Shown: positions 6,580-51,583, numbered from the stretch's first letter. The stretch: DNA of 64,000 bases from Nitrosomonadaceae bacterium (GCA_014190895.1 BJGV01000001.1:113845-177844); one strand, 5' to 3'. The notes: a model not told the origin generated them from the letters alone. Numbers and translations are program-made.

Positions 6580-9500
6580 ATGCTTCGATTTCGTGGCGGT
6601 ATCGCCCTTTCCCCTTTGCGATTAGAAAGAATAATGGGTGCACTTAGGGTCTCTGTTCCTCAAGTTTCCCATATTTATGCCGAGTATTGGCATTTTTGTA
6701 AAATAAAACGTCCTCTACAACAGAACGAAGTAACTATCATTGATAAGTTACTTACCTATGGTCCGGTACAAAAGACTGAAATTCCCTTGGGCGAATTGTT
6801 GTTAGTGTTGCCTCGTTTTGGCACTATTTCTCCTTGGTCTTCTAAAGCTACCGATATCTCTCATCGTTGTGGGCTAAATGTAATTGAACGTTTAGAGCGT
6901 GGCGTGGCATTTTATGTGCAGTCTCATGGCAATCTCTCTGCTGAAGCTAGAGCTACATGCGCCACTCTAATACATGACCGTATGACTGAATCTGTTTTTA
7001 ATTCGTTTAATGACGCAGAGAAATTATTTCTACATTTTATGCCCACATCATTTGAAACTGTAGATGTATTAGGTGTCGGTATAGAGGCGTTACAACTTGC
7101 TAATATCGGATTAGGATTGGCGTTATCACCCGAAGAAATAGAATATATTGCAATTAATTTTACGCGCATCGGCCGTAATCCAACCGACGTGGAATTAATG
7201 ATGTTTGCTCAAGCTAACTCAGAACACTGTCGGCATAAAATTTTTAACGCCGACTGGATTATAGACGGGCGGGTGCAGACGAAATCTTTATTTTCAATGA
7301 TACGTAATACCCATCAAATGAATCCGCAAGGTACGGTAGTAGCTTACACCGATAATTCTTCTATTATTGAGGGCGCGCAGGTTGCCTGTTTCTATCCAGG
7401 AAGAGATGATAAGTACGATTATGCCGAAGAGCAGATAAATATTTTAATGAAAGTTGAAACTCATAACCATCCCACCGCAATCTCTCCTTATCCCGGAGCC
7501 GCTACTGGTGTGGGTGGGGAAATTCGTGACGAAGGAGCGACTGGTCGAGGCGCTAAACCCAGAGCTGGTTTCACTGGGTTTTCTGTTTCCAATTTAAGTA
7601 TCCCAGATTTTATTCAATCTTGGGAGATATATCAGGAATCTAGAGTAAAGAATGGCTATGGCAAACCTCATCATATTTCATCTGCTTTGCAGATTATGTT
7701 AGAGGCTCCAATTGGCGGAGCAGCATTTAATAACGAATTTGGACGACCTAATTTAGCTGGATACTTTCGCACCTTTGAAGAATTAGTGGCAGGTGAAATG
7801 CGCGGATATCACAAACCTATCATGTTAGCTGGGGGTATGGGTCATATCTTGCAACAGCATTCATTTAAGGAGGAGTTTCCACCTGATGCCTTGCTAATTC
7901 AATTAGGCGGACCTGGAATGTTAATTGGTCTTGGCGGTGGGGCAGCTTCTAGTATGAATACTGGGACAAATAAAGAAATGCTTGATTTTGATTCTGTGCA
8001 GCGTGGTAACGCAGAGATGGAAAGACGGGCTCAAGAGGTGATTAATCGCTGTTGCCAGATGAATGGAAAAGATGCATCCAATCCCATTCTTTCGATTCAT
8101 GATGTTGGCGCAGGCGGTCTATCTAATGCATTGCCAGAACTTTTACACGATTTTAAGCGTGGCGGACATTTTAATTTACGTGATATTCCTTCAGAAGAAT
8201 CAAGCATGTCACCCATGCAAATTTGGAGCAATGAGTCCCAGGAACGCTATGTATTGGCAATTAAATTAGAGTCATTGGAATTATTCAGAGCAATTTGTGA
8301 ACGCGAACGCTGCCCATTTTCTGTAATAGGCGAAGCAACTAAATTAGAGCAACTTGTTGTAAGTGATCTGGTACTCGGAAATAATCCTGTTGATATGGAA
8401 CTTTCAGTTTTATTAGGAAAGTTGCCAAAAATAACACGTGATGTTGTACGCATAGAGAAAAAATTACTTCCTTTTGATATAACAAAGTTAGAATTAAAAG
8501 AAGTCGCTTATCGAGTTCTACGTCTGCCCGCAGTAGCAGATAAAACTTTTCTCATTAGTATTGGTGACCGTACTGTCGGCGGGATGACAGCCCGTGATCA
8601 GATGGTAGGGCCTTGGCAGATACCGGTAGCGGATGCAGCAGTAATGCTTATGGGATATAAAACTTATTTGGGGGAGGCATTTGCTATAGGTGAACGCGCT
8701 CCATTAGCGCTCATCAATCCTGCTGCTGCTGCACGTATGGCGGTGGGTGAGGCCATCACCAATATTGCTGCTGCACTGATTATAGATATTGGAGAGATCA
8801 AGCTTTCCGCCAACTGGATGGCGGCGGCTGGGCATCCAGGTGAGGATGCGGGTTTGTACGATGCGGTCCATGCAGTAGGGATAGAGTTATGTCCGCAACT
8901 GGGGATCAGTATTCCGGTAGGTAAGGACTCCATGTCAATGAAGACGGTATGGACTGAAGAAGAGAATGATCAGAGTACGACTGTCCATAAGGAAGTGACT
9001 GCACCTCTGTCCTTGATCATCTCAGCCTTTGCGCGAGTGATAGACGTGCGTAAGACACTCACGCCTCAATTACGTACCGACTGTGGAGAGACGGAACTGA
9101 TCTTGATTGATCTGGGCGCGGGTAGAAACCGTCTAGGTGGATCGGCGTTAGCGCAAGTTTATAAGCAGGCAGGTGATATAGCCCCGGATCTAGATGATCC
9201 ACAGAAGCTCAAGGGATTATTCGCCGGTCTGCAACGCTTAAATCAAGAAGGTAGGGTACTTGCTTATCATGACCGCTCTGACGGGGGCCTATTTGTGGCA
9301 TTGTGCGAGATGGCCTTTGCCAGTCATTCCGGTATTACAGTCAATCTCGATCAGTTGTGTTTCGACGAGCTCGCTAATGATGTGGATGGTTATGAGCTGA
9401 GACCCGAAATAATGGACGGAAAGGCTCAGGGAAGAATCCTTTCTGTCCTTTTTAATGAGGAGCTTGGTGGGGTGATCCAGATCAGAACAGAGCAGCGTCA

Positions 9501-10605
9501 TGCCGTTCTGGAAGTTTTGGCAGAGGCTGGTTTGCGCGATATGAGTTTTGTCATCGGAAGTCTTAACGATAAGGATCAAGTACGTTTCTTGAGAAACAAT
9601 AAAACGGTATTTTCCGAGCGGCGTTTAGATCTGCAGCGCGCTTGGTCAGAGACCACGCATCAAATGCAAAAGCTGCGGGATAATCCAGAGTGTGCGCAGC
9701 AGGAATATGATCGCATACTCGATATCACCGACCCTGGTCTGAATGTGCAGTTGAGTTTCGATGTGGACGATGATATTGCTGCTCCTTATATCCAGAGTGG
9801 AGCGAGGCCAAGAATTGTTATTCTGAGAGAGCAGGGTGTAAATGGTCATGTCGAGATGGCTGCAGCCTTTGACCGGGCTGGATTCGCTGCGACCGATGTG
9901 CACATGAGTGATATCATCGCTGGACGTGTCTCACTGCAACATTATCAGGGCTTGGCTGCATGCGGTGGGTTCTCCTACGGAGATGTGCTGGGGGCAGGGG
10001 AAGGTTGGGCCAAGTCTATTCTGTTCAATCATCGCGCACGTGATGAATTCAAAATGTTTTTCCAACGGACCGATACCTTCGCCCTAGGGATCTGTAACGG
10101 ATGCCAGATGATGAGCAATCTGCAAGAAATAATTCCCGGTGCGGAGTACTGGCCTCACTTTGTGCGCAACAAGTCAGAGCAGTTTGAAGCCCGCTTCGTT
10201 ATGGCTGAGGTTCAGCAGAGCCCCTCAATGTTTTTTGATGGAATGGTCGGTAGCCGTATGCCTATTGCTGTTGCTCATGGAGAGGGTTATGCGGAATTTG
10301 CCGATGAGAAAGCGCTATTGGCTGCATCATCTCTGATCGCACTACGTTTTATCGACAATTACGGCAAGCCTACTGAGATTTATCCACTTAATCCTAATGG
10401 TTCTCCCCAGGGCATTGCCGGCATGACTACACCAGATGGGCGTTTCAGTATACTTATGCCACACCCGGAACGGGTGTTCCGTGTCGCTCAACATTCATGG
10501 TATCCGACTGCGGAGTCGAGTATTAAGGGCGTGGGTGCGACAGAGTGGCATGAAGACGGGCCATGGATGAGGATGTTTAGGAATGCGAGAAGATGGGTGT
10601 GCTGA
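6580..10605 (+). CDS. purL: phosphoribosylformylglycinamidine (FGAM) synthase, single-chain large form
   Basis: 1341 aa. The N-terminus resembles E. coli PurL. It has an AIRS-like repeat region ([26 protein letters not shown]) and a C-terminal glutaminase (GICNGCQMM ... PHPER). The frame is continuous across the composition change near 8.5 kb. Confidence 0.95.
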
Positions 10606-10632
10606 TATAACTTACGGTAAGGAGTGTCCGGT

Positions 10633-11844
10633 ATGATTATTTCTAAAAGTACGCTATATGTTGGACTTGTTGGCGTCGTTCTGCTTGTAGTTGGGGCAGA
10701 CTTTAATATTGCATCGGCTCAATCGAAGTCCACGAATAAGGAGGGCACGGACTGTGTTCCGGTGGCAAGTTGGGTAGTACCTGCTGGCAATAAGATAGCC
10801 AATAATAGGGTCATTGGGCGTGCGGCAAAACAGTCGGTAGTTTTGCTCGGTGAGATGCACGATAACCCAGAGCATCACCGCTGGCAGTTGCAGATGCTGG
10901 CTGCACTTTATGCCTCTCGTCCAGACATGGTGATAGGTTTCGAGATGTTTCCACGGCGGGTACAAAAAGCACTCGATCGATGGGTGGCTGGAGAGTTCAC
11001 TGAGACTGAATTTCTTGCCGCTACAGACTGGGACTCCGTTTGGAGTACGGACGCGAGTTACTATCTACCACTATTTCATTTCGCGCGTATGAACCGGATA
11101 CCGATGGTGGCACTCAATATTGATACGCGTTTGAGGCGGGAGATCTCCGCGAAGGGTTTCGATGGAGTGCCGGAGAGTGAGCGCGAAGGGGTGACGCGAC
11201 CTGCCAGTCCGAGTGTTGGATACCTTGATAACTTACTGCCTGTATATCAGGAACATGAGCACGAGGGCGAGAAAAAAACCGAGATCGGCCATGACGATCC
11301 AGATTTTAGGCGGTTTGTCGAGAGCCAGCAGCTATGGGATCGAGCGATGGCGCAAGCGATACATCGATCGCTCGAGAGACCAGGACGCCCGCTGGTGGTT
11401 GGGATCATGGGTGCGGGACATATCAAGCATGGCTATGGAGTCCCTCACCAACTGAAAGACCTCAAGATCCTAGATGTTGCCATGCTGCTTCCATGGGATA
11501 GTGGTAAGGCATGTGGTCAGCTCGTTGCAGGAATGGCCGATGCTGTGTTCGGTGTCGCACCATTCGTTTCGTCTGTCCAGCAGCATCAGCGGCTTGGGAT
11601 CCAATTTGAGATTACTTCAGATGGTGCACGAGTGTTGCAGGTTGAGAAAGGCAGTATTGCTGAGATATCGGGTCTGCGTAACGGTGATGTAATGCTGAAG
11701 GTTGCGGGCATGGTGGTTAAGCAGACTGGGGATATCGTCGCAGCGGTCAAGCGTCATGCGCCGGGCACCTGGTTACCGCTCAGGGTAAAACGAGGCAACG
11801 AGACAATCGAGGTCATCGCTAAATTCCCGGCAGAGGAACGGTGA
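10633..11844 (+). CDS. secreted ChaN/Tiki-superfamily (haem-binding-uptake-like) domain protein with C-terminal PDZ domain
   Basis: Signal peptide with ...NIASA/QSK. ChaN-type blocks VVLLGEMHDNPEHHRWQ and GIMGAGHIKHGYGVP. C-terminal PDZ-like GIQFEITSDGARVLQVEKGSIAEISGLRNGDVMLKVAG. I prefer the ATG at 10633, which lies 8-9 nt after TAAGGAG, over the GTG at 10624 that overlaps the SD. Confidence 0.75.
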   Translation: MIISKSTLYVGLVGVVLLVVGADFNIASAQSKSTNKEGTDCVPVASWVVPAGNKIANNRVIGRAAKQSVVLLGEMHDNPEHHRWQLQMLAALYASRPDMVIGFEMFPRRVQKALDRWVAGEFTETEFLAATDWDSVWSTDASYYLPLFHFARMNRIPMVALNIDTRLRREISAKGFDGVPESEREGVTRPASPSVGYLDNLLPVYQEHEHEGEKKTEIGHDDPDFRRFVESQQLWDRAMAQAIHRSLERPGRPLVVGIMGAGHIKHGYGVPHQLKDLKILDVAMLLPWDSGKACGQLVAGMADAVFGVAPFVSSVQQHQRLGIQFEITSDGARVLQVEKGSIAEISGLRNGDVMLKVAGMVVKQTGDIVAAVKRHAPGTWLPLRVKRGNETIEVIAKFPAEER

Positions 11845-13886
11845 CTCTGACCGGAGCAAGATTGCAGATCATCAGGGGTATTACATGCCTCGTTCTCTCT
11901 GGTTTTATTGCAACAACTGCGTCTTCAGCACCAAGTGCAAAGACGGATGTCCGGTACGACATCACTGTGCGCATTGATCCGGCCTCACGCCGGATTGAAG
12001 GGCGCAGCCTTATCACCGTATCAGCAGCCGGTGAGTTGACGCTGGTACTGGGTCGTCGTTTTGAAGTGACGCATGCCCTGGTCGACGGACTGCCTATGGG
12101 GAGATCTATTTCAAGCACTGTTAATACCCAAGCCTGGTGGATTCCACGCCGCCAGCACGGGCAGCGTCGAATTGAGATTCATTGGAGGGGTGAGCTTGCG
12201 CCAATGGACAGTTCACTCGAACATCGACAGACACTCGGCAGGAGTGAGCCGGCGAGCGGATCAGCAGGTACATTCCTTCCTGATTCCAGTGGCTGGTATC
12301 CACACTTAGTAGGAACACTTCCACGATATCGAGTTAGCCTAGAATTGCCGTCAGGCCAGCGCGGTTTGGTTGCGGGACGTTTGATTGATGAGTCTGAAAC
12401 AACCGAGAGCTATCGTGCGAGTTTCGAATTCCCTTTTCCTTCTGAAGGGATCGATCTTATGGCTGGCCCTTATGCGATCGGGACCGACACAATGCGTGGT
12501 GCGGGTGGTAAGCCGATCCAGATTCGTACTTATTTTCATCCGCAAATTAGGGATCTTGCCAAAAAATATCGTGAAGAGGTAAAGGGTTACATTGAATTTT
12601 ACGAGACATGGATTGGCGAGTACCCATTTACTGAGTTCAGTGTGGTGTCGAGTCCGACACCGACCGGTTTCGGCATGCCAACGCTCACGTATCTCGGTAT
12701 CGAGGTGCTGAGGCTGCCATTCATCCGCGCGACCTCGCTTGGGCATGAGGTACTACACAACTGGTGGGGAAATGGTGTTTATCCAGATTATGCCCATGGA
12801 AATTGGTCCGAGGGCCTAACCACCTTCATGGCGGATTATGCTTACAAGGAGCGAGAAGGGTCGGAAGCTGCGAGAGAGATGCGGGTTGGGTGGTTGCGAG
12901 ACTTTTCCGCGCTAGCATCTGGCCAGGACATGCCATTGACGAAGTTTACCTCGCGCACCCATGGGGCCTCTCAGATCGTCGGCTATAACAAGGCGGCGAT
13001 GGTGTTTCTGATGATGCGTGACTTACTCGGACAAGAGACGTTCGACCGTGCGTTGCAGTTGTTCTGGCATGAGCAGCGCTTTCGTGTCGCTTCTTGGACG
13101 GACTTACAGCGTGCATTTGAAACAGTATCGGGGCGAGATCTGAGGATATTTTTTAAACAGTGGCTGACACGTTCGGGTGCACCGGTTGTGCGTATTACAG
13201 AAGCGGTACGTACATATTCCGACTCAAGCCACAGAGTGAGCATCACGCTGGAGCAATCGGAACCTATCTACCAGTTACGTGTGCCGATTGGGCTACGTAC
13301 TGAAGAGGGGGAGGAGGTCCGAATGCTCGATCTGGAGCAAAAGCGTCAGACCTTTACACTGGAAGTTCCGGCACGGCCGATCGAAGTTACGCTCGATCCA
13401 GGGTTGCGTTTATTCCGGCAATTAATGCCCCAAGAGGCCCCCCCTATTTTGCGTCAAGTCATGGTAGACGAGACGGTGGTATCCGTCCTGCTACCAGAGA
13501 CCGGTGAGGCATATGCCGCAGCCGAGTTACTTGCAACAAAACTACAGAACCATTCCCTAAGAATATTTTCAGCGACGAATGCCCTGCCGACTGTGTCGAT
13601 GCTGGTGATAGGTCTGCATGATCAGATCGATGCGTGGCTTGCTCGCCGGCAGTTACCCTTACGCCCAGGGATTGTCCAGGGAAAGGGTTCGGCACAGGCT
13701 TGGACGGTAAGTCGCCCGGGAGGGGCGACAGTCACGCTCGTGTCTGCTCGCGATGTCGCTGCGCTCACCGCTTTGGCGCGTCCGCTGCCGCATTACGGTC
13801 GACAGAGTTATGTTGTCTTCGAGGATGCAAAGATGATTGAGCGTGGCATCTGGCCGATGCGTATGCAAGTAATAAAGATTGACTAA
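11841..13886 (+). CDS. secreted M1-family (gluzincin) zinc metallopeptidase-like protein
   Basis: HEVLHNWWGN followed by NWSEGLTTF gives the HExxH-x18-E zinc site, resembling PepN HEYFHNWTGN...KEGLTVF. The N-terminus has a signal-like segment (CLVLSGFIATTASSA/PSA). The GTG start overlaps the upstream stop (GTGA). Confidence 0.8.
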   Translation: MTLTGARLQIIRGITCLVLSGFIATTASSAPSAKTDVRYDITVRIDPASRRIEGRSLITVSAAGELTLVLGRRFEVTHALVDGLPMGRSISSTVNTQAWWIPRRQHGQRRIEIHWRGELAPMDSSLEHRQTLGRSEPASGSAGTFLPDSSGWYPHLVGTLPRYRVSLELPSGQRGLVAGRLIDESETTESYRASFEFPFPSEGIDLMAGPYAIGTDTMRGAGGKPIQIRTYFHPQIRDLAKKYREEVKGYIEFYETWIGEYPFTEFSVVSSPTPTGFGMPTLTYLGIEVLRLPFIRATSLGHEVLHNWWGNGVYPDYAHGNWSEGLTTFMADYAYKEREGSEAAREMRVGWLRDFSALASGQDMPLTKFTSRTHGASQIVGYNKAAMVFLMMRDLLGQETFDRALQLFWHEQRFRVASWTDLQRAFETVSGRDLRIFFKQWLTRSGAPVVRITEAVRTYSDSSHRVSITLEQSEPIYQLRVPIGLRTEEGEEVRMLDLEQKRQTFTLEVPARPIEVTLDPGLRLFRQLMPQEAPPILRQVMVDETVVSVLLPETGEAYAAAELLATKLQNHSLRIFSATNALPTVSMLVIGLHDQIDAWLARRQLPLRPGIVQGKGSAQAWTVSRPGGATVTLVSARDVAALTALARPLPHYGRQSYVVFEDAKMIERGIWPMRMQVIKID

Positions 13887-14026
13887 GGATGAAATAGAAA
13901 GAGGTAGAAGGGTTCGGATGGTCAAGCCTTCTGCCTGCCAGATTTAGATGAATGGCTTTTTTGCTTTTTCCGTTTCTGGGGTAGTTTTTTTGTTAGAATA
14001 CGCTTTTAATTTAGCGGAGTATCTCG

Positions 14027-14455
14027 ATGGGTGTTGAAAGAACTTTATCTATTATCAAGCCGGATGCAGTTGCAAAGGGTGTGATCGGACAAATTTACTC
14101 TCGTTTTGAGAGTAATGGTCTGAAAATCATTGCCGCTCGTATGCTGCATCTCTCTCAAGCTGAGGCTGAGGGGTTTTACGCGGTACATCGCAGCCGTCCA
14201 TTCTTTAATGATCTTGTGAAGTTCATGATTTCTGGACCGGTAATGGTACAGGCGCTCGAGGGTGAGGATGCGATTAAAAAAAATCGTGATCTGATGGGTG
14301 CAACTGATCCAAAAAAAGCTGAGAAAGGAACCATTCGTTCAGATTTTGCCGATAGCATAGATGCCAATGCTGTACATGGATCCGATGCCCCGGAGGCCGC
14401 GGCGATCGAAATTGCTTACTTCTTCCCCGCGCTGAACATTTATTCCGGCAGATAA
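14027..14455 (+). CDS. ndk: nucleoside-diphosphate kinase
   Basis: 142 aa. [12 protein letters not shown] and NAVHGSD (catalytic His) are present. Confidence 0.95.
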
Positions 14456-14474
14456 TGAGCCGTGTCTCAACACC

Positions 14475-15590
14475 ATGACGGTCAATCTGCTTGATTTTGG
14501 TGCGGGAAGTCTTGCCGATTTCTGTGTAGAAATTGGAGAAAAACCATTTCGCGCTAGGCAGTTGCTACGTTGGATTCATCAGTCTGGTGTGTCAGACGTT
14601 ACGAGTATGAGTGATCTGGCGAAGGCTTTGCGGGAAAAGCTTGCTGCGACTTCGGTGATCGAACCGCCTCGAGTTATTAGTGATCATACCGCCAGCGATC
14701 AGACCCGTAAGTGGTTGTTATCAGTGGGTGCGGGTAATGGCATCGAGATGGTCTTTATCCCTGAAGCCAACCGAGGTACCTTGTGTATTTCTAGCCAGGT
14801 AGGTTGTGCCCTAGAATGTTCTTTCTGTTCCACCGGTAAGCAAGGTTTCAATCGTAATTTAACGGTGGCGGAAATTGTCGGCCAACTATGGTTGGCAAAC
14901 AATGCGGTGAGGGAGAGCTCTTGCAGCCTAGAGGCACAGACGGTTTTAGATGGGAATGAGGTAACTCAATCTAGCACACGCAGTCGCGCCATCAGTAATG
15001 TGGTATTTATGGGTATGGGCGAGCCGCTGGCTAATTTTGAGAATGTAGTTGCGGCCCTTGATCTGATGTTAGACGATAACGCATACGGGCTGTCGCGTAG
15101 ACGTGTAACGGTGAGTACATCTGGTCTGATTCCGGCCATGGATCGATTGCGAGAACGTTGTCCGGTAGCCTTAGCTGTATCGTTGCACGCACCTAATGAT
15201 GCATTACGAGATCAACTGGTACCAATCAACAAAAAATATCCAATTAAGCAACTACTGGCAGCATGTCAACGTTATCTTAAATCCGCACCGAGAGATTTCA
15301 TAACTTTTGAGTATGTTATGTTAGACGGAATAAATGACAGCATAGTCCATGCGCGCGAATTGGTAGAATTGGTACGAGAAACATCTTGTAAATTTAACTT
15401 GATTCCATTTAATTCATTTTCTGGATCAGGTTATAGGCGCTCATCATCTGAGTCAATTCGCTGCTTCCGAGACGTGTTGATGCAAGCAGGTTTGGTAGCG
15501 ACAGTTCGTAAAACCCGTGGAGATGATATTGCAGCCGCTTGTGGACAGCTTGCAGGGAAAGTATTAGACAAGACTAATCGAAAAAAATGA
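14475..15590 (+). CDS. rlmN: 23S rRNA/tRNA adenine-C2 methyltransferase, radical SAM
   Basis: 371 aa with the radical-[11 protein letters not shown] (Cx3Cx2C). It occupies the conserved ndk-rlmN position. Confidence 0.95.
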
Positions 15591-15849
15591 CGCAACGAGG
15601 GTTTGGCATATTGAAATAAGATCTAACATTTTTTGATGATATTTTTTTCTAGTTAGAGCAGAAAATTTTCAAATGAAATCAATATATGATTTATGCAAGT
15701 TCTTTCTGATAATTGTGAACGTTACAAGCGTTCAGTTAGTTTACAATAGCAAGACAGTAAATTTGACACCGCATAAAAATAAATACAGGGGAGTGGGGTG
15801 TTTACCACTCGAATAGATTCTTTACGGCTATAAAGTTTTTATATCTATC

Positions 15850-19073: not shown

Positions 19074-20654
19074 ATGCTGAAATATGTTTTTCTAATACCT
19101 GTGCTACTAGCATCTGTCGGATGTGCCGGCATTGTGAATCCGTTCGCTAACAAAGAAAGCAAGATTAGCGAATCAATGCCCATCAAATCTGAAAACAAGA
19201 ATGCTCAAGTCGATAAGGAAATAGTTGTTAATTCTGGTAACGAGATCCCCGATATTAAGAAAGATAATTTCCCGTTAAAAGTAGTTACGGGTACATCTCT
19301 ATTATGGAAGAACATAATTGGCTCAGAAATAATAGAAAAGTTCTCGACACGCGAAATTGTTGATGACGTACTCGCACTTTCTCTCGCTATAGGTAAGAAT
19401 AAAGATGTGATAACGACGCTCTCACCAGCGTCTAATAAAGGCGAGGTTTATGCTGCTTACACAAATGGGCAGCTTGCTTGTTTCGATTCTGTTACGGGTA
19501 GTCAACTATGGAGTATTAATACTCAGCATAAATTATCTGGCGGCGTAGGTATAAGTGAGGAAATGTTATTAGTTGGTACTTTCAAGGGAGAAATTCTAGC
19601 ATACGATAAGAAAGGAAAATTTTTATGGGAAGCATCAGTACCTAGCGAGGTTCTAAGCCAACCACAAGTAGACCGGAATATAGTAGTGGTGCGTACTACG
19701 GATAATAAGATCTATGCTTTAGATGCTACTAGCGGGAAGCGTATGTGGATTTATCAAGGTCCTAGTCTACCATTAACTGTGCGTAGTTCTGCGGGTGTGT
19801 TGGTTATAGGTGGCGGGGTATTCGCTGGATTTTCTGGAGGTAAACTGGTCGCAATAAATCTATCTAACGGCGGTTTAGTATGGGAGGCATCAGTATCTAA
19901 ACCCCGCGGTGTGACGGAACTGGAGCGCATGGTAGATATAACCAGCTTACCAGTGATTGATAATCGACAGATATGTGCCGTGGCTTACAGAGGCCGCGTT
20001 GCTTGCTTTGATATAGCTAATGGCAATAATATTTGGGGGCGAGATATATCCAGCAGTGCTGGTCTAGCCATGGATAGCAAGCATGTTTATGTGAGCGATG
20101 ATGATGGTTCGGTAGTAGCCTATAATAAAGAAAGTGGAACTAAAATATGGAAAAAAGATATACCCAAAGTAGAGCCGCCTAAAAATTTTGGCATTACTTG
20201 GATAACTACGGGCGGTGATCGTGTTGGCAAAGTAGACCCTTTTGGCGGTAAAGATAAGAAGATGACCTCTAGTTTTTGGAGCTTTTTTACGGGAAATAGT
20301 GATTCAGAGACCGCAGATACAGATAAAAAGAAAGATAAAAAGAAAGATAAAAGTAGAAATACCAGACCAGACCTGCGAGCAGGTAATTCCATAATAGGTG
20401 ATTTTTTTACAACAACTTTAGATTCAAGTAGCAAAAATAGTATTCGTAATAAATTATCCGCACCTCTCGTTCATGATGTTCAGGTAGTGGTTGGTGATTC
20501 TCAGGGAAACGTGACCTTTCTTAAGAATGAAGATGGTACTATTATTTCTCAGTTCGTCACTGACGGAGCCCCCATTCTTGCCCGTCCAGAGTATTTGTCT
20601 AATGGTATCTTAGTGCAAACTATTAAAGGTGGGCTCTACGCATTTGGTATGTGA
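19074..20654 (+). CDS. bamB: outer membrane protein assembly factor BamB (PQQ-like beta-propeller lipoprotein) with large insertion
   Basis: Lipoprotein-like N-terminus (LLASVGC). Repeated propeller blade signatures are present (G.v.a.d...G...W). The C-terminus VVVGDSQGNVTFLKNEDGTIISQ resembles E. coli VVGDSEGYLHWINVEDGRFVAQ. At 526 aa it is longer than the usual length of about 390. Confidence 0.8.
   Translation: MLKYVFLIPVLLASVGCAGIVNPFANKESKISESMPIKSENKNAQVDKEIVVNSGNEIPDIKKDNFPLKVVTGTSLLWKNIIGSEIIEKFSTREIVDDVLALSLAIGKNKDVITTLSPASNKGEVYAAYTNGQLACFDSVTGSQLWSINTQHKLSGGVGISEEMLLVGTFKGEILAYDKKGKFLWEASVPSEVLSQPQVDRNIVVVRTTDNKIYALDATSGKRMWIYQGPSLPLTVRSSAGVLVIGGGVFAGFSGGKLVAINLSNGGLVWEASVSKPRGVTELERMVDITSLPVIDNRQICAVAYRGRVACFDIANGNNIWGRDISSSAGLAMDSKHVYVSDDDGSVVAYNKESGTKIWKKDIPKVEPPKNFGITWITTGGDRVGKVDPFGGKDKKMTSSFWSFFTGNSDSETADTDKKKDKKKDKSRNTRPDLRAGNSIIGDFFTTTLDSSSKNSIRNKLSAPLVHDVQVVVGDSQGNVTFLKNEDGTIISQFVTDGAPILARPEYLSNGILVQTIKGGLYAFGM
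20322..20354 (+). repeat. 12-nt coding tandem repeat (about 2.7 copies) inside the bamB insertion
   Basis: GATAAAAAGAAA, GATAAAAAGAAA, GATAAAAGT encodes DKKKDKKKDKS. Confidence 0.9.
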
Positions 20655-22160: not shown

Positions 22161-22640
22161 TAAGTTAGTCGGGTAGAGAATCATTTTAATCACAAGTGTA
22201 TATGGAACTCTTGAAACTATATTTTCAACTTCACCATATAAATAAAGGTGATTCCCCTCTGTTTCGCTCTAATTTGGAGAGGGAGTTTCTTAGCTCATTT
22301 ATATTTAACTAAATTTCAGCGTCAGAATATTTGAGAATGGACAATATCTTGTATCGTATTAGAGATTTAAACGAGTTTTTTGCTTGCTTTGATGTAAAAT
22401 CGCCGGTCTCCTGACTGATGTAACCTCGCTTTGACGACTGAGTCTGATTATCCGTGCTCTTGTTTAGTTAATAAGTCAGTGTCGTCAGTAATCTCGACAA
22501 TACCTGTGTTGGGAGTCTAGCCAGTTAACGTAACCAGGAGAATGATATACAAAGTATCCTTACAATATACTTTTGATGATCAAGATTAAAAGGTAAAGGG
22601 TAAATTAACTCTGCTTGAGACGAAGAAATAGAGTTTCTTT

Positions 22641-31668: not shown

Positions 31669-32514
31669 ATGACCCCAGATCAATATTGTCAGAATAAAGC
31701 CATTCAAAGTGGCTCTAGTTTTTACTACAGTTTCTTGTATTTACCAACGGAGAAGCGTCGTGCTATTACTGCACTTTACGCTTTTTGTCGCGAGGTGGAT
31801 GATGTGGTAGATGAGTGTACGGATACATCAGTAGCACGTATCAAACTTGCATGGTGGCGACAAGAAATATCGTCTGTGTTTAATGCAACACAGGAACATA
31901 GACCTGCTCATCCAGTAGCAAAAGCACTATTGGCGACGATTAAAGAAATAGATCTTACTGCCGAACAACTATATAAAGTTATAGACGGCATGGAAATGGA
32001 TTTGGATTACAATCGTTACACTGATTTCAATACTTTGAAACTTTATTGTCATCATGTAGCAGGTGTAGTAGGAGAATTATCTGCCAAAATTTTTGGCTAT
32101 CGTAATGATAAAACGCTGATATATGCTCATAATCTAGGACTTGCATTTCAACTTACTAATATTATACGTGATATAGGTGAGGATGCCCGTCGGGGCCGTA
32201 TTTACTTACCACAAGATGAACTTGTTCGCTTCGGTGTTTCTGATGATGACATACTCAACTCATGCGAAACTAACGGCTTTAGACAGTTGATGGAATTTCA
32301 GATTGAACGAGCAGAAGAGTATTATGACAAAGCATTTGCAGCACTACCTGCAGAAGATCGTAAAAATCAGCTTCCCGGCTTAATTATGGCGGCAATTTAT
32401 AGAACTCTTTTAGAAGAAATAAAGAATGGTGGTTGCCAAGTTATGAGACAACGCGTGAGTCTTACTCCAATACGCAAACTTTGGATAGGATGGAAAACTT
32501 GGGTTCGGGGGTAA
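31669..32514 (+). CDS. squalene/phytoene synthase family protein (HpnD-like presqualene diphosphate synthase)
   Basis: 281 aa. SGSSFYYSFLYLP, the first Asp-rich motif YAFCREVDDVVDE, and the second motif NIIRDIGEDARRGRIYLP are present. Confidence 0.8.
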   Translation: MTPDQYCQNKAIQSGSSFYYSFLYLPTEKRRAITALYAFCREVDDVVDECTDTSVARIKLAWWRQEISSVFNATQEHRPAHPVAKALLATIKEIDLTAEQLYKVIDGMEMDLDYNRYTDFNTLKLYCHHVAGVVGELSAKIFGYRNDKTLIYAHNLGLAFQLTNIIRDIGEDARRGRIYLPQDELVRFGVSDDDILNSCETNGFRQLMEFQIERAEEYYDKAFAALPAEDRKNQLPGLIMAAIYRTLLEEIKNGGCQVMRQRVSLTPIRKLWIGWKTWVRG

Positions 32515-33442: not shown

Positions 33443-33527
<85 letters not shown>

Positions 33528-44805: not shown

Positions 44806-47004
44806 ATGAAGGTACCGTATAAATACCTCCCAGTACTCTTTCTAGTCCCGCTCTTTGCATGTAGCGGAGACTCTTGGAACAATCCTTATCCGGCTACCGA
44901 TGCGGATAAGAATATTCTCTATGGTGCCTTTGCTGAGCGTCCCAAACATCTTGATCCGGTGCAATCATATAGTTCAAATGAGATTCTATTCACCGCGCAG
45001 ATTTACGAGCCACCATTACAATACCATTATCTGAAACGTCCTTATACATTAGTTCCATTGTCAATTGAAAAAATACCGATAGCGCAATATTTTGATGAAA
45101 ATGGGAAACAGTTATTAGATGGTAATAGCGATCAAAGAGTCGCTTATACAGTTTACGAGATTGTCATTAAACCGAGTATTAATTACCAACCTCATCCTGC
45201 TTTCGCTAAAAATGATCAAGGTAAATTTCTTTATCACAATCTAACGACTAAGGATTTGGTCGGAATTTTTAAGCCCAATGATTTTTCTTATACTGGTACG
45301 CGTGAGTTAACAGCAGAAGATTATGTTTTTCAGATTAAGCGACTAGCTCACCCTACGCTACACTCCCCAATATTTGGCCTGATGTCGGAGTACATTGTTG
45401 GTCTGAAGGAGTATTCAGCTACCCTCAAAAGAGTGGCAACAGAGCAATCTAAAGAGGAGGGTAAGAATACTTATCTCGACTTAAATAATTATCCATTAGA
45501 GGGTGCGCAGGTAGTGAATGCCCATACCTACCGTATCAAAATTAAGGGAAAGTATCCACAATTTATTTATTGGCTAGCAATGCCTTTCTTTGCTCCAGTT
45601 CCATGGGAAGTAGAGCGTTTCTACACTCAACAAGGATTAATAGAAAAGAACATTACTCTTGATTGGTATCCTGTCGGTACTGGAGCCTATATGCTAACTG
45701 AGAATGATCCGAATCGAGCAATGATATTAGAAAAGAATCCTAACTTTCATGGCGAAGCTTATCCGTCAGAAGGCATGCCAAATGATATAGCGGCAGGTCT
45801 ATTAGCAGACGCAGGCAAATCATTGCCTTTCATTGATAAAGCTGTATTCAGTCGTGATAAAGAAAGTATTTCACGCTGGAATAAATTTTTACAAGGTTAC
45901 TACGATGCTTCAGGTATTGGTTCTGATAGTTTTGATCAAGCAGTACAATTGATGGGGCAAGGAGAAGCAACCGTGACCGAGGAAATGAAAGCTCAGGGCA
46001 TCCGTTTGCAAACATCGGTCCCAACCTCCACCTACTACGTAGGTTTTAATATGTTGGACCCCTTGATAGGTGGTTCTTCTGATTCTGCAAGAAAATTACG
46101 ACAGGCTATTTCTATAGCAGTGGATTATGAGGAGTATGTTTCTATATTTTCTAATGGTCGTGGTATTCCGGCACAAGGACCAATTGCACCTGGTATTGCT
46201 GGTTATCGAGATGGTCAGAAGGGGATCAATTCGGTTGTATATGATTGGGAGAATGAGCAACCAAAAAGAAAATCCATAGAAGCCGCTAAAATTCTATTAG
46301 CTGAGGCGGGTTATCCTAATGGAATGGACGCGAAAACTAACGCTCCATTAGTATTGTATTTTGATGTAACCGCTCATGGCGCTGAAGATAAATCTAATTT
46401 AGATTGGATGCGCAAACAATTTCAAAAATTAAATATTCAATTAGTGGTGAGAAGTACAGATTACAATCGTTTTCAAGACAAGATACGTAAGGGTAATGCG
46501 CAAATATTTGAGTGGGGATGGAATGCTGATTATCCTGATCCAGAAAACTTTTTATTCTTGCTGCATGGACCACAAAGAAAAGTCGGGAATGATGGTGAGA
46601 ACGCCGCTAATTATGATAATCCTGAGTATGATAATTTGTTTGAGAAAATGAAAAATATGGAAAATGGCCCAGAGCGACAAGAAGTTATTGATCGCATGAT
46701 CGTTATTTTACGTCAAGATGCGCCATGGTTATGGGGATATCACCCTAAAGATTTTGTTTTGTATCATGCTTGGTATGAGAATATTAAACCCAACAAACTG
46801 GCTCATAACAATATGAAGTATTTTCGCATAGATGCCAATTTAAGGGAAAAGAAGCGGAAGGAATGGAATGAGCCAGTGTTGTGGCCTATTGCATCCGGTC
46901 TAATTGTATTAATAATAAGTTTGATCCCTGTAATGTTTGTTTATCGACGCAGAGAGCGTGGGGTCGGGATTCCAAATTCAAGAGCCCAAGATAGCAATGT
47001 TTAA
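44806..47004 (+). CDS. ABC transporter substrate-binding protein, family 5 (peptide/Opp-Dpp-Yej type), with lipobox and C-terminal TM segment
   Basis: 732 aa. N-terminal LFLVPLFAC lipobox and an SBP_bac_5-like body. The C-terminus WPIASGLIVLIISLIPVMFVY is followed by RRRER. Confidence 0.8.
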   Translation: MKVPYKYLPVLFLVPLFACSGDSWNNPYPATDADKNILYGAFAERPKHLDPVQSYSSNEILFTAQIYEPPLQYHYLKRPYTLVPLSIEKIPIAQYFDENGKQLLDGNSDQRVAYTVYEIVIKPSINYQPHPAFAKNDQGKFLYHNLTTKDLVGIFKPNDFSYTGTRELTAEDYVFQIKRLAHPTLHSPIFGLMSEYIVGLKEYSATLKRVATEQSKEEGKNTYLDLNNYPLEGAQVVNAHTYRIKIKGKYPQFIYWLAMPFFAPVPWEVERFYTQQGLIEKNITLDWYPVGTGAYMLTENDPNRAMILEKNPNFHGEAYPSEGMPNDIAAGLLADAGKSLPFIDKAVFSRDKESISRWNKFLQGYYDASGIGSDSFDQAVQLMGQGEATVTEEMKAQGIRLQTSVPTSTYYVGFNMLDPLIGGSSDSARKLRQAISIAVDYEEYVSIFSNGRGIPAQGPIAPGIAGYRDGQKGINSVVYDWENEQPKRKSIEAAKILLAEAGYPNGMDAKTNAPLVLYFDVTAHGAEDKSNLDWMRKQFQKLNIQLVVRSTDYNRFQDKIRKGNAQIFEWGWNADYPDPENFLFLLHGPQRKVGNDGENAANYDNPEYDNLFEKMKNMENGPERQEVIDRMIVILRQDAPWLWGYHPKDFVLYHAWYENIKPNKLAHNNMKYFRIDANLREKKRKEWNEPVLWPIASGLIVLIISLIPVMFVYRRRERGVGIPNSRAQDSNV

Positions 47005-47974
47005 TTACATTATACGTCGCATATTTTATGCTGTTCCAATTTTGATCGGCGTAAATTTAGTTACTTTTGCACTATTTTTTGTAGTGAATACTCCCGACGA
47101 TATGGCACGCATGCAACTTGGCATCAAGCGTATTACACCAGAAGCAGTTATCAAATGGAAACAAGAGAGGGGCTATGATAAACCATTAATTTTCAATGCT
47201 GAGGCAGAGGGCGTTACAAAATTAACTCGTACTATTTTCTTTGAAAAATCAGTTTCGATGTTCATCTTTGATTTTGGGCGCGCCGATGATGGGCGCGATA
47301 TTGCTCGTGAAATAACGACACGTATGTTGCCGAGTCTTGGTATTGCATTGCCAGTATTTCTATTAGGCCTTCTGTCTTACGTGACATTCGCGCTTTTAAT
47401 GACATTTTTCCGTGCCACTTATATTGATCTATGGGGCGTTGTGCTATGCGTTGCATTAATGTCCATATCTGGACTTTTTTATATTATTGGCGGCCAATTT
47501 CTTATTGGTAAATTGTGGCACATAGTCCCCATTTCTGGTTATGGTAATGGATTAGATGCTACTAAATTTTTAGTGCTGCCAGTTCTTATCGGCGTGATTA
47601 GTGGAGCCGGTAGTAGTATTCGTTGGTATCGAACCATATTTCTAGAAGAGATAAGCAAGGATTATGTTCGTACTGCTCGTGCCAAAGGTTTGTCGGAGAG
47701 AGTGGTATTGTTTAGACATGTGCTAAAGAACGCTATGATTCCAATACTCACTGGTGCAGTGGTTATTGTGCCGTTACTATTTCTAGGTAGTCTTGTGAGT
47801 GAATCATTCTTCGGCATTCCTGGTCTAGGCAGTTATACTATCGATGCCATTAATTCCCAGGATTTTTCTGTTGTGCGTGCCATGGTTTTTTTGGGATCTT
47901 TGTTTTATATCATCGGATTAGTATTAACTGACATTTCTTATACGCTGGTTGACCCAAGAATAAAATTAGAATAA
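46997..47974 (+). CDS. ABC transporter permease (DppB/OppB/YejB-like)
   Basis: MFNYIIRRIFYAVPILIGV is the typical family N-terminus. The EAA-like region DYVRTARAKGLSERVV is present. The ATG at 46997 overlaps the SBP stop by 8 nt. Confidence 0.88.
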   Translation: MFNYIIRRIFYAVPILIGVNLVTFALFFVVNTPDDMARMQLGIKRITPEAVIKWKQERGYDKPLIFNAEAEGVTKLTRTIFFEKSVSMFIFDFGRADDGRDIAREITTRMLPSLGIALPVFLLGLLSYVTFALLMTFFRATYIDLWGVVLCVALMSISGLFYIIGGQFLIGKLWHIVPISGYGNGLDATKFLVLPVLIGVISGAGSSIRWYRTIFLEEISKDYVRTARAKGLSERVVLFRHVLKNAMIPILTGAVVIVPLLFLGSLVSESFFGIPGLGSYTIDAINSQDFSVVRAMVFLGSLFYIIGLVLTDISYTLVDPRIKLE

Positions 47975-47996
47975 TAATTTTTCAGACGAGATAGTC

Positions 47997-49505
47997 ATGC
48001 CTTTCAAGCCCATTGTTCTCTGGACTGATGCCCTCATTTATCTGCTATTGGTGGTAATAGTTTTTTTCGTTTGGTATGTGCGGAGCAACAAACATCTTTT
48101 GGAGCCATGGCGACGGGTAGGTCACAGCACGAGTGGTATGATGGCTTTGACATTATTGGTATTTTTTATAACGATTGGCTTGCTCGATACTGTACATTTT
48201 CGTTCCGCTGTAGAGAGTAATAGAGACACAGAGTCAGGAACAATTTATAGCGCGGAAGTGCTGAGTTTGCTTGATGTTATTGCGACACCTTTGCGTACGC
48301 GATTAGAAAAAACTTACTCAGCACCTTTTGCCACACATCTTTACACCAAGGAAACGATAGAGTTATCTGACGGAAAACAGGTACGAGAATTTCCTCGCTT
48401 GGTATTTGGAGGGGCAAACTTACAGGATCCCAAAACCCAGTTTACTGCAGACTTTGCTTCGCGAGCATTCATCGGTTTAAGTTTTGGAATTTTTATCTGG
48501 TGTATATGCGCTATTCTTCTAATTACTTTATTAGCGTCTATGGGTGGTCATAAATTCTCCGAAACTCTCTCCATTATTTGGCGAAATGAGACAGAATCTC
48601 CATGGAAATATGTGCTTTTAACGCTTGCTTTGATATTCTCATTAGCAGGTACTGCAATAACTTTATCTGCTCATTACCATATACTTGGTACTGACAAGGT
48701 AGGTCAAGATGTATTTTATCAATCATTAAAAAGCATTCGTACGGGATTGGTAATCGGAACACTTACTACCCTCATAATGCTCCCATTTGCGATACTCTTG
48801 GGGATTATGGCAGGATATTTCAAGGGATGGGTAGATGACGTGATTCAGTACACCTATACTACGTTAAGTTCGATCCCTAGCGTACTGTTAATTGCTGCAG
48901 CTGTTTTGATGATGCAAGTGTATACAGAAACTCACCTCGAGTTATTTGACACCATTGCTGCACGCGCTGATTTACGCCTTCTATTCCTCTGTATCATATT
49001 GGGTGTGACTAGTTGGACTGGTCTGTGCCGTCTTCTGCGTGGAGAGACTTTGAAGTTGCGTGAGATGGAGTATATTCAGGCAGCTCATGCATTTGGTGCA
49101 TCTCATTGGCGTATTATTAGCCGCCATATCCTTCCTAATGTAATGCACATTATTTTAATTACCACAGTTATGGATTTCAGCGGATTGGTTCTAGCCGAAG
49201 CCGTTCTATCTTATGTTGGCGTTGGTGTTGATCCTTCTATGATTAGCTTCGGAACAATGATTAATGCTGCACGCTTAGAGATGGCTCGTGAACCAATGGT
49301 ATGGTGGCCACTGCTCTCAGCTTTTAGTTTTATGTTTGCATTAGTACTTAGTGCCAATCTATTTGCCGATTCAGTACAGGATGCGTTTAATCCAAGAATA
49401 AAAACATCATTGATTAGAATCGGAAAATCTCGTCAAGGTAAACAAGGTAATAAATTAGAAAATAAAGTCGTGGTTTCTATAATTAGAGATTCCACTTCGC
49501 CATGA
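47997..49505 (+). CDS. ABC transporter permease (DppC/OppC/YejE-like) with extended N-terminal membrane region
   Basis: The canonical core starts near LGTDKVGQDVF...IRTGLVIG. It is preceded by about 230 aa containing several hydrophobic segments. EYIQAAHAFGAS is present. Confidence 0.85.
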   Translation: MPFKPIVLWTDALIYLLLVVIVFFVWYVRSNKHLLEPWRRVGHSTSGMMALTLLVFFITIGLLDTVHFRSAVESNRDTESGTIYSAEVLSLLDVIATPLRTRLEKTYSAPFATHLYTKETIELSDGKQVREFPRLVFGGANLQDPKTQFTADFASRAFIGLSFGIFIWCICAILLITLLASMGGHKFSETLSIIWRNETESPWKYVLLTLALIFSLAGTAITLSAHYHILGTDKVGQDVFYQSLKSIRTGLVIGTLTTLIMLPFAILLGIMAGYFKGWVDDVIQYTYTTLSSIPSVLLIAAAVLMMQVYTETHLELFDTIAARADLRLLFLCIILGVTSWTGLCRLLRGETLKLREMEYIQAAHAFGASHWRIISRHILPNVMHIILITTVMDFSGLVLAEAVLSYVGVGVDPSMISFGTMINAARLEMAREPMVWWPLLSAFSFMFALVLSANLFADSVQDAFNPRIKTSLIRIGKSRQGKQGNKLENKVVVSIIRDSTSP

Positions 49506-51583
49506 CCCCATTATTAAAGATTAGTAATCTGGAAACTATTGTCCATAAAGGTTTAAAACCTGTACGAGTAGTTAACGGACTGACCTTACAAATTATGAAA
49601 GGGGAAACCTTTGCCCTATTAGGAGAGTCTGGTTGTGGTAAATCTATGACTGCACTTTCTGTCATGCGATTGCTACCGGAAGCAGGAGAAATCATTTCCG
49701 GTTCTGTTAAAATTGGTGGAGAAGACCTACTTCTTTTACCAGAAAGCGCTATGCGCAATATACGCGGTAGGCGTATCAGCATGATTTTCCAAGAACCGAT
49801 GCTAAGTTTAAATCCTGTTCTAACAGTGGCAGATCAGGTTGGAGAGGTATTACAGCAACATTTTAACTTGCAGGGTATAGCGCTTAAAGAGCGCATTTTA
49901 AAAATATTAAATCAGGTTGGTATACCAGATGTACCAAATCGTATGTTTGAATATCCTTTCCAATTCTCTGGTGGAATGAAGCAACGGGTGATGATTGCAA
50001 TGGCGTTAGCTGGGGAGCCCGAGTTACTTATTGCTGATGAGCCTACTACTGCCTTAGATGTTACCATTCAGGCACAAGTATTAGCCCTTATGAGTAGTTT
50101 GCAGCAATATAATGGCATGGCTATTCTTCTAATTACCCATGACCTCGGTGTAGTGGCAGAAATGGCGCATCAGGTAGCGGTAATGTACGCAGGAGAAATT
50201 GTCGAGACTGCGGCACGCGATCAATTTTTCAGAAATCCAGCGCACCCCTATTCTTTAAAACTTTTCGCTGCGTTACCTGGCAAAAAGAAACGAGAGAAAG
50301 GGTTGGCGACAATTAATGGAACCATGCCACTTTTGTCGCGTGAGTTTATTGGTTGCCGTTTCGCAGACCGTTGCGATCATGCCTGGGATTTATGTCATGT
50401 ATCTGTACCAGAATGGAACGAGGTGACTGCTGGTCATCAGGTAAGGTGCCATCTTTTTAGTAAGAACTCGGAATATAGGGTCGAAAGCCCAGTTAAGAAG
50501 GTAGAAATTAGTTCACAGGCAATGTCTGCTTTCCAGGCACCCACTTCAAATCCACAATTATTACGCGTTACTAATCTTAAAGTTCACTTCCCTATACACA
50601 AGGGATTGATGAAGCGTGTGACAGGACACATCAAAGCAGTAGATGGCGTATCACTTACAATTCCACAAGGAAGAACATTAGCGTTAGTTGGGGAATCGGG
50701 TTGCGGCAAGACAACAGTGGGAAAAGCTATTCTGCAATTAATCCCACCTACAGCCGGCAGCGTGCAATATGACGGATTGGAGTTGGTAGGTCTAGAGCGT
50801 AAAAAATTACGGGAGAAAAGAACTGAATTTCAGATTGTATTTCAAGATCCCTACTCGTCTCTGAATCCTAGGATGCGTATAATCGACATCATAAAAGAGG
50901 GTATAAATTCTTCAGACATTAAATTTAATCGTGGAATGAGTGGTGGGAATCCCCGATCTTTAATTTCAGAAGAAGAGAAAGTGGACACGTTGTTGCAGCG
51001 TGTGGGGTTGCCTCCTGATACAGGGTGGCGTTATCCGCATGAGTTCTCTGGTGGTCAGCGACAACGCATTGCTATTGCTCGAGCTCTAGCAGTCAATCCG
51101 AGACTATTAATTTGCGATGAACCCACAAGCGCCCTGGATGTTTCTGTACAAGCGCAGATTTTGAATCTGCTAGAAGAATTACAAAATTCTTTGGGACTCT
51201 CGTACTTATTTATTACTCATAATATTTCTGTAGTGGAGTATCTTGCTGATGAAATTGCAGTGATGTATTTAGGACGAATTGTAGAACAAGGGACTGTGGA
51301 TGAGGTTTTAGGTAATCCAAGACATCCTTATACTCAGGCATTACTTTCGGCGGTGCCTGTAATTGAATTTGAATCAAAGCGTGAGATTATTCGTTTGCAC
51401 GGAGACTCTCCTTCGCCTGTGAATCCACCATCAGGTTGTCATTTTCACCCCCGTTGTCATCACGCTACATCGATATGTCACACAATTTATCCAGAAGAAA
51501 CTGCATTTAGTCCAACGCATATAACACGGTGTTATCTTTACTCAAAGGAGCGGAATTTGCCGCACCCGCAGATGCAAAAATAA
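49502..51583 (+). CDS. fused double ABC ATPase (YejF/DppD-DppF-like)
   Basis: Two Walker A motifs (GESGCGKS twice), two signatures (FSGGMKQR, FSGGQRQR) and two oligopeptide-type C-terminal Cys/His segments. There is a 4-nt overlap with the permease. Confidence 0.92.
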   Translation: MTPLLKISNLETIVHKGLKPVRVVNGLTLQIMKGETFALLGESGCGKSMTALSVMRLLPEAGEIISGSVKIGGEDLLLLPESAMRNIRGRRISMIFQEPMLSLNPVLTVADQVGEVLQQHFNLQGIALKERILKILNQVGIPDVPNRMFEYPFQFSGGMKQRVMIAMALAGEPELLIADEPTTALDVTIQAQVLALMSSLQQYNGMAILLITHDLGVVAEMAHQVAVMYAGEIVETAARDQFFRNPAHPYSLKLFAALPGKKKREKGLATINGTMPLLSREFIGCRFADRCDHAWDLCHVSVPEWNEVTAGHQVRCHLFSKNSEYRVESPVKKVEISSQAMSAFQAPTSNPQLLRVTNLKVHFPIHKGLMKRVTGHIKAVDGVSLTIPQGRTLALVGESGCGKTTVGKAILQLIPPTAGSVQYDGLELVGLERKKLREKRTEFQIVFQDPYSSLNPRMRIIDIIKEGINSSDIKFNRGMSGGNPRSLISEEEKVDTLLQRVGLPPDTGWRYPHEFSGGQRQRIAIARALAVNPRLLICDEPTSALDVSVQAQILNLLEELQNSLGLSYLFITHNISVVEYLADEIAVMYLGRIVEQGTVDEVLGNPRHPYTQALLSAVPVIEFESKREIIRLHGDSPSPVNPPSGCHFHPRCHHATSICHTIYPEETAFSPTHITRCYLYSKERNLPHPQMQK

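Follow-up and report, generated by a model that had tools for sequence, protein, structure and literature searches.

Core genes that are mosaics between species are known from pbp in Streptococcus pneumoniae, from penA in Neisseria, and from introgression between Campylobacter coli and Campylobacter jejuni. In these systems crossovers fall in register inside housekeeping genes and leave hybrid alleles whose parts have discordant nearest relatives. Sister strains keep the native allele, and the mosaic version later goes on to spread through the species. Here we describe a locus that shares these features, in a stretch of 64,000 nucleotides (nt) from a Nitrosomonadaceae bacterium (GCA_014190895.1, BJGV01000001.1:113845-177844; hereafter the window, with positions counted from its first letter). 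A segment of 6,369 bp, which begins in the middle of purL and ends in the middle of rlmN, very probably arose by homologous (allelic) replacement in place from another clade, leaving purL and rlmN as intact hybrids. Unlike the known mosaics, whose parents are ~5–20% diverged, the parental sequences here differ at ~30–34% of nucleotides and by 10 points in guanine-plus-cytosine (GC) content, there is no obvious selectable marker such as drug resistance, and the host is an uncultured, streamlined lake nitrifier.

Two other well-described situations are close to this one. In xenologous or orthologous gene displacement in situ, as in mosaic operons, resident genes are replaced in place by distant orthologues, and the locus described here agrees with this in its unchanged chromosomal position and conserved synteny. 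Classical displacement, however, is inferred from whole-gene phylogenies over deep time. In the present case a single species (~99% average nucleotide identity in the flanks) still retains the two parental alleles and shows the junctions, which are intragenic, at base level. The recombinant genome types of Leptospirillum and Ferroplasma resolved by metagenomics in acid-mine drainage likewise consist of kilobase blocks exchanged between co-occurring related populations and seen as sharp identity switches in contigs, although those populations are only a few percent to ~20% apart and the clades in this case are separated by 10 GC points.

At its junctions the locus also resembles homology-facilitated illegitimate recombination, or transformation beyond 15% divergence (PMC6382021), in having joints at 8–11 nt of microhomology in DNA too diverged for efficient RecA exchange. 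That process relies on one good homologous anchor and usually yields out-of-register joins with indels; here, in contrast, both joins are in register and the available parent proxies offer no high-identity anchor. The process itself is thus a known one, interspecies mosaicism or orthologous displacement in situ, of which this locus is a clean new example. Crossing over at ~30% divergence is its unusual feature, and its visible two-layer haplotype structure and its occurrence in many lake metagenomes also stand out.

Identity of the imported block

The imported block (positions 8742–15110, plus strand, GC 0.50–0.55) is defined by its identity to donor-type sequences and its divergence from the native allele. 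It is 97.5–97.7% identical to L004 and L029, 2 contigs from 51%-GC Nitrosospira metagenome-assembled genomes (MAGs), with divergences of 2.5% and 2.3%, respectively. L004 (Nitrosospira sp. MAG, GC 0.51) was found by a scan of species-representative genomes with PurL, which led to Nitrosomonadaceae MAG contigs. In a sliding comparison with this contig, the window is 94–100% identical between 8800 and 15000 and 56–78% identical outside. Two other donor-type contigs are more distant from the block, L018 at ~95% identity and L001 at ~90%.

The proteins encoded across the two edges change their closest relatives partway along. The hybrid purL gene (6580–10605, plus strand; FGAM synthase, 1,341 amino acids) was characterized through its open reading frame (ORF), its Pfam domains, the identities of each half to the reference proteins P0002 and P0003, and a three-way DNA alignment. 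Its codons up to ~720 are of the low-GC type and the remainder of the donor type. In protein searches, P0002, the native low-GC protein, shares 98.6% identity with the N-terminal half and 73.8% with the C-terminal half, and the donor-type P0003 shares 71.7% and 96.2%, respectively. The hybrid rlmN (14475–15590, plus strand; 371 amino acids), identified from its ORF and Pfam match, mirrors this pattern: codons 1 to ~213 are of the donor type and the remainder of the low-GC type, with the N-terminal part 97–99% identical to donors and 66% to native sequences, and the C-terminal part 82% identical to donors and 94–95% to native sequences. The nearest named homologues of both PurL and RlmN belong to Nitrosospira or Nitrosomonadaceae. 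A preliminary description of this DNA, made from the sequence alone, had noted that both genes run through the compositional edges uninterrupted, and both frames are indeed intact, open from 6580 to 10605 and from 14475 to 15590.

Three complete genes lie between the hybrids, all on the plus strand and all of donor type. The first encodes a protein with a ChaN-like domain (PF04187) and a PDZ domain (10633–11844, with an alternative GTG start at 10624), the second an M1-family peptidase-like protein of 681 amino acids (11841–13886), and the third is ndk (14027–14455), which has 99.5% nucleotide identity to L004. Downstream of rlmN the order continues with ispG and then hisS. Ratios of nonsynonymous to synonymous substitution rates for the block genes relative to L004 range from 0 to 0.38, with the M1-like peptidase at 0.38, which indicates purifying selection on the imported genes in comparison with their donor-type orthologues.

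Position of the crossovers and composition of the locus

The junctions were placed with diagnostic sites, which are the positions at which the native sequence L023 and the donor-type L004 differ. Left of the block, 893 of these sites are of native type and 24 of donor type; inside it the numbers are 63 and 2,075, and to the right they return to 1,133 and 38 (Fisher p ~0 for both switches). The left crossover interval is 8734–8741, bounded by the last native-diagnostic site at 8733 and the first donor-diagnostic site at 8742, and its 8 nt are common to the native and donor types and fall inside the PurM_N-like domain of purL. The right crossover interval is 15111–15121, between the last clean donor-diagnostic site at 15110 and the first native-diagnostic site at 15122, where 8–11 nt are common to the two types inside the radical-SAM domain of rlmN. 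The longest exact match between native and donor sequences in the whole locus is 22 nt, at 10367–10388.

Composition changes along with ancestry. The background GC of the window is ~0.40, with 1-kb bins of 0.37–0.44 over nearly its whole length, and the bins at 9–14 kb form a plateau of 0.50–0.535. In 200-nt windows the left step goes from 0.34–0.385 (8300–8599) to 0.50–0.54 (8500–8899) and the right step from 0.51 (15000–15199) to 0.37 (15200–15399), the climb spanning 8400–8700 and the drop 15100–15300. GC at third codon positions (GC3) rises in purL from 0.15–0.35 to 0.45–0.55 around 8500–8750 and falls in rlmN from ~0.5 to 0.23–0.35 around 15150–15250. Over whole genes it is 0.52–0.53 in the 2 central genes, as against 0.25–0.39 in all 35 of the other ORFs of at least 200 amino acids in the window. 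Since the shift is visible in GC3, it is not an amino-acid effect, and the compositional jump that first drew attention to this region is real by all 3 measures (1-kb GC, 200-nt GC and GC3).

The finer compositional claims need some adjustment. GC values counted by hand in 60-nt lines were exact on recount (0.35, 0.33 and 0.27 at 8341–8520, 0.60 at 8581, 0.65 at 8821 and 0.60 at 12001, then 0.38 at 15301 and 0.27 at 15361 on the right side), but the 60–65% reported for the left part of the block represents peaks and not the mean, as nearby lines of the block are as low as 0.42. The edges had been drawn at 8520 and 15200, which correctly put them inside purL and rlmN but missed the true junctions, by ~220 bp in purL and ~80 bp in rlmN. 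What raises GC at 8520 is codon positions 1 and 2 in a conserved domain of PurL, where the DNA is still of native type.

Two antisense ORFs on the minus strand, 10654–10965 (103 amino acids) and 12351–12746 (131 amino acids), lie inside the imported genes. Such ORFs occur only in the high-GC block, as expected from the depletion of stop codons with rising GC, and they do not indicate genes, in agreement with their earlier interpretation as a by-product of composition.

The native allele and the conserved order of genes

Sister strains retain the allele that the block replaced. The contigs L017, L023 (GCA_009693205.1) and L028 match the window at 97–100% identity in the far flanks but differ from it by 34% over 8742–15110. 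They encode PurL of the P0002 type, have a GC content of ~0.40 throughout and an unchanged gene order, and these 3 loci are unreplaced native alleles of the same species-level population. The preliminary description had set import against the case in which both halves of each hybrid gene share their nearest relatives and sister loci share the GC profile; what was found is that the halves of PurL and RlmN are discordant and that L023 and L028 have a flat profile of 0.40 across the locus.

These strains also bear on whether the block could have been inherited vertically and shaped by unusual local selection or by GC-biased gene conversion, an explanation for which the composition itself speaks and nothing more. 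Strains that are 99–100% identical in the flanks carry a low-GC allele diverged by 34%, the block falls inside the range of variation of the 50%-GC clade (97.5% to L004, then L018 and L001 at successively lower identity), and its boundaries are sharp to 8–11 nt. We therefore reject local selection, which the preliminary description had already considered the weaker of its proposals, and its probability appears negligible.

The order purL, ChaN-PDZ, M1, ndk, rlmN is identical in native, donor and window sequences. The 2 central genes had been described as foreign to the usual purL/ndk–rlmN neighborhood, and this was wrong: both lie between purL and ndk in all of the fetched Nitrosomonadaceae relatives that extend past purL, native and donor types alike, including L004, L001, L018 and L029, with partial matches in the Nitrosomonas MAG L003. 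The imported and native versions share 60% amino-acid identity in ChaN-PDZ (417 amino acids in the native form), 59% in the M1-like protein (690 amino acids in the native form) and 84% in Ndk. Because ChaN-PDZ and M1 already occupy this position in the native L017, L023 and L028, the event is a like-for-like orthologous replacement without gene gain. The proposal of import from a higher-GC relative, with purL and rlmN as flanking homology, thus stands on the discordant protein halves and the sister GC profile, but loses its two-gene cargo.

The same synteny decides the case of an insertion between purL and ndk by a genomic island or mobile element that brought these 2 genes as cargo. The highest GC3 in the window does belong to the 2 central genes, and an island with integrase and AlpA genes exists in some members of the population ~7 kb downstream, past 22413. 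A cargo insertion is nonetheless hardly credible, and we regard it as refuted, as these genes occupy this position in the native allele too, and likewise in every fetched relative extending past purL, the number of genes is unchanged by the replacement, and the block also swaps ndk in full together with half of each of purL and rlmN. We found no flanking direct repeats at the block edges and no transfer RNA (tRNA) gene there (the nearest is at 33443), the Pfam lists contain no integrase within 8–16 kb, and a 35-mer from the block, searched for as a hint of transduction, had no match in viral contigs.

The downstream island is a separate feature. After position 22413, between der/engA and DUF525/apaG (locus position ~17940), 2 carriers of the block, GCA_037128855.1 (L007/L019) and ERZ4222710 (L009/L021), diverge from the others through an insertion with an integrase (Arm-DNA-bind_3 and Phage_integrase domains), an AlpA-like gene, small ORFs and an acyltransferase, all of which are lacking in the window and in the other carriers. 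ARAGORN detected no tRNA at this insertion site.

A further difference in gene content lies just right of the replaced segment. In the 50%-GC relatives L004, L018 and L029, a rodZ-like gene (HTH_25 and RodZ_C domains, ~295 amino acids) is located between rlmN and ispG, whereas in the window and in the native low-GC strains the rlmN–ispG spacer (15591–15849 in the window) is only 260 bp long and has no such gene. The last ~150 bp of the spacer still align to the DNA downstream of rodZ. The rodZ-like gene appears to have undergone lineage-specific loss, which would agree with genome streamlining.

Independent recovery of the hybrid sequence

A chimeric assembly or MAG mis-join, in which the assembler would have left the low-GC genome for a 50%-GC Nitrosospira occurring alongside it and then returned, had been offered as an alternative to recombination. 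The low-GC and 50%-GC genome types do co-occur, and in one contig, L022, the assembler seems to have taken the wrong branch at the left junction. An identical hybrid RlmN, however, is encoded on 16 contigs among NCBI, ENA, JGI and Logan assemblies; the exact hybrid PurL, looked up in the contig index, was not on record there. Both junctions are spanned by contigs from ERR14789933, ERZ4222710, JGI 3300027627, DRR583737 and ERZ27300101, which are 99.77–99.96% identical to the window. These 5 carrier contigs come from distinct samples and differ from one another by single-nucleotide polymorphisms (SNPs), and the 61-mers across both junctions are unchanged in 4 of the 5 samples, the JGI contig carrying the left one.

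The same 2 junctions therefore appear in at least 5 independent assemblies besides the window, produced with different pipelines (SPAdes, MEGAHIT, JGI and Logan). SNP density among the carriers is alike in the block (2.7 per kb) and in the flanks (2.0–2.5 per kb), and all carriers hold a single block allele, which lies 2.3–5% from L004, L029 and L018 and ~10% from L001 and is thus distinct from every sampled donor-type contig. In addition, the 8–11 nt shared at the junctions are far below any assembly k, and a k-mer (de Bruijn) assembler could not make such joins. Judged by these contigs, an assembly chimera appears extremely improbable, and the short joins and repeated independent assemblies would exclude it for this locus.

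Contig L022 (ENA ERZ27247838, k141_545803; aligned over 5900–27099) deserves separate comment. To the left of the block it matches the donor-type L004 at 98–100% identity, also in the gene upstream of purL, and from 15110 rightwards it is of the low-GC window type. Within the block, 119 of its sites are of the window type and 34 of the L004 type. Probably the assembler changed paths at the branch point that the shared block creates, but the contig may instead represent another recombinant whose import reaches further. In either case it shows both genome types in one sample. There is a practical warning here, as a block shared by 2 genomes in the same sample allows assemblers to create true chimeras at that place, of which L022 is apparently one.

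Probable recipient and donor, and possible mechanisms of crossing over

The literature offers a likely setting for the exchange. Among freshwater Nitrosospira of the Laurentian Great Lakes, NspGL1 has a 1.42-Mb genome with 40.7% GC, while NspGL2a, NspGL2b and NspGL3 have ~50% GC (Podowski et al., PMC9239080). The upper Great Lakes are dominated jointly by NspGL1 and NspGL2b, and Lakes Biwa and Baikal have yielded related MAGs (PMC9239080). The composition of the window would fit NspGL1, and the name of the donor-type contig, MC14_S12_M_CONCOCT_099, together with its GC content, would agree with the 50%-GC clades of Podowski et al. Recombination goes unmentioned in that paper (PMC9239080), which among indexed works is the only one to use the clade name NspGL1.

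We propose that the recipient was a low-GC (~40%) streamlined freshwater ammonia oxidizer resembling Nitrosospira and the donor a co-occurring Nitrosospira clade of ~50% GC. The orthologous segment from mid-purL through ChaN-PDZ, the M1-like gene and ndk to mid-rlmN would have been swapped position for position, with both crossovers in register within coding sequence. The original crossovers between the clades would have been resolved at microhomologies of ~8–11 nt in DNA that is only ~70% identical. Either homeologous recombination across a weak mismatch barrier or a microhomology-resolved join of the illegitimate type could account for this. From the in-register joins two routes suggest themselves, namely pairing of homeologous DNA over the full segment, resolved at microhomologies, or a weakened mismatch-repair barrier.

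These features of the crossovers point away from a long identical stretch as the seed of a classical RecA exchange. The minimal efficient processing segment is ~20–30 nt, and the identical stretches at the crossovers are 8 and 8–11 nt as measured with parent proxies, the true parents being unsampled; because of this, the result concerns the mechanism and not the occurrence of the replacement. In experiments, transformation efficiency falls log-linearly with divergence up to 15%, beyond which it changes to an illegitimate-type mode (PMC6382021). About 20 further ORFs of the window were compared with Pfam for context or for mismatch-repair genes, and all were ordinary housekeeping genes; the genes scanned include ligA, groEL, tig-clpP-clpX-lon, ppiD, fabI, the oligopeptide ABC transporter, prfC and rph.

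Diverged borders and a possible two-step route

The low-GC DNA immediately on either side of the block is not simply that of the native references. A left transitional zone (8100–8741) is 3.6–3.7% diverged from both L023 and L028, as compared with 0.8–1.5% further left. A right transitional zone (15122–15697), which comprises the 3′ end of rlmN and most of the spacer, is 11.6% diverged from the same references, as compared with 0.35–0.7% further right. In the left zone, 11 of the 23 differences are the donor or outgroup state (binomial p = 5e-6), as are 35 of the 68 in the right zone (p = 6e-16), where ~11% would be expected by chance. Since about half of the border differences are thus the outgroup state, they are substitutions on the native branch and not new mutations in the carriers. 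Among the carriers, the left zone has 0 SNPs in 642 bp.

From these patterns we infer that the borders derive from a third, unsampled low-GC lineage, here called lineage X. The import between clades would first have landed in this other low-GC lineage, and a haplotype of ~7.6 kb (~8100–15700; the block with ~0.6 kb of lineage X DNA on each side) would then have entered the present background by within-species recombination. We lean towards this two-step route, which the sequence of the borders makes reasonably probable. The simpler course, in which the block was imported in a single step into the present lineage and the borders are later recombination patches, local polymorphism or mutations from error-prone repair, seems unlikely, although it deserves to be taken seriously. 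Patchy divergence does occur elsewhere in the species, for example in a patch of L023 with a 12-bp insertion at 20214–20440. Set against this are the exact abutment of both diverged zones on the block and their ending within ~0.6 kb of it, which would be a coincidence if they were independent; the native-branch substitutions, which carrier mutations cannot give; and the occurrence of the border zones in all carriers, the left zone being without internal variation.

A number of points weigh against the account as a whole, some of which also favor a single step. The 2 border zones differ threefold in divergence (3.6% versus 11.6%), so that one fragment from one lineage X is insufficient by itself to explain them. 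Lineage X itself was never found: a scan of metagenomes with an X-type 34-mer returned only 2 carrier contigs, and in a search for RlmN homologues the closest native C-terminal part was 94.8% identical. The two-step route would accordingly be read from divergence patterns only. A double crossover at ~30% divergence is mechanistically unusual, and no sampled sequence is the actual donor, the nearest being still 2.3–2.5% away. Finally, the window would be matched to NspGL1, and L004 to the 50%-GC clades of the Great Lakes, on GC content, MAG naming style and accession neighborhood and not on phylogeny.

The patch at 20214–20440 mentioned above lies in a bamB-like gene with PQQ_2 domains (19074–20654) and is private to L023. 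All other strains, including the native L028, match the window there, and it represents another small recombination or indel patch. A length variant of bamB in L026, considered for a four-gamete test against the block, turned out to be a difference in gene calling, the private patch being present in L023 only.

Other features of the window

Two further gene regions of the window touch on the reported physiology of these nitrifiers. A gene of the squalene/phytoene synthase family (PF00494) is located downstream of groEL at 31669–32511 on the plus strand and is a candidate for crtB or for a hopanoid-pathway gene; NspGL1 is reported to have crtB for retinal synthesis (PMC9239080). An operon for an ABC transporter of the oligopeptide type occupies 44806–51580, also on the plus strand, and encodes an SBP_bac_5 binding protein of 732 amino acids, 2 permeases and a fused double ATPase of 693 amino acids with 2 oligo_HPY domains. 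It may be relevant to the use of organic nitrogen reported for these organisms.

Significance for lake ammonia oxidizers

The locus provides a base-resolution case in which 2 co-occurring clades of lake ammonia oxidizers, treated as separate ecotypes, still exchange core housekeeping DNA in place. Public metagenomes contain both parental alleles as well as the recombinant and its junctions, which makes the locus a natural marker with which gene flow, the spread of haplotypes and possible selection could be measured in uncultured nitrifiers.

A more far-reaching and rather doubtful possibility is that this was an adaptive introgression. A cross-clade set of alleles, namely the C-terminal half of PurL, the periplasmic ChaN-PDZ protein, the M1-like peptidase, Ndk and the N-terminal half of RlmN, would have been acquired over a divergence of ~30% by microhomology-resolved homeologous recombination, passed between low-GC lineages, and brought to many lake populations by a gene-specific sweep. 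If this were true, streamlined planktonic ammonia oxidizers would have an unusually permissive barrier to recombination, for example through reduced anti-recombination by mismatch repair, and ecotypes standing 10 GC points apart would still be exchanging core genes.

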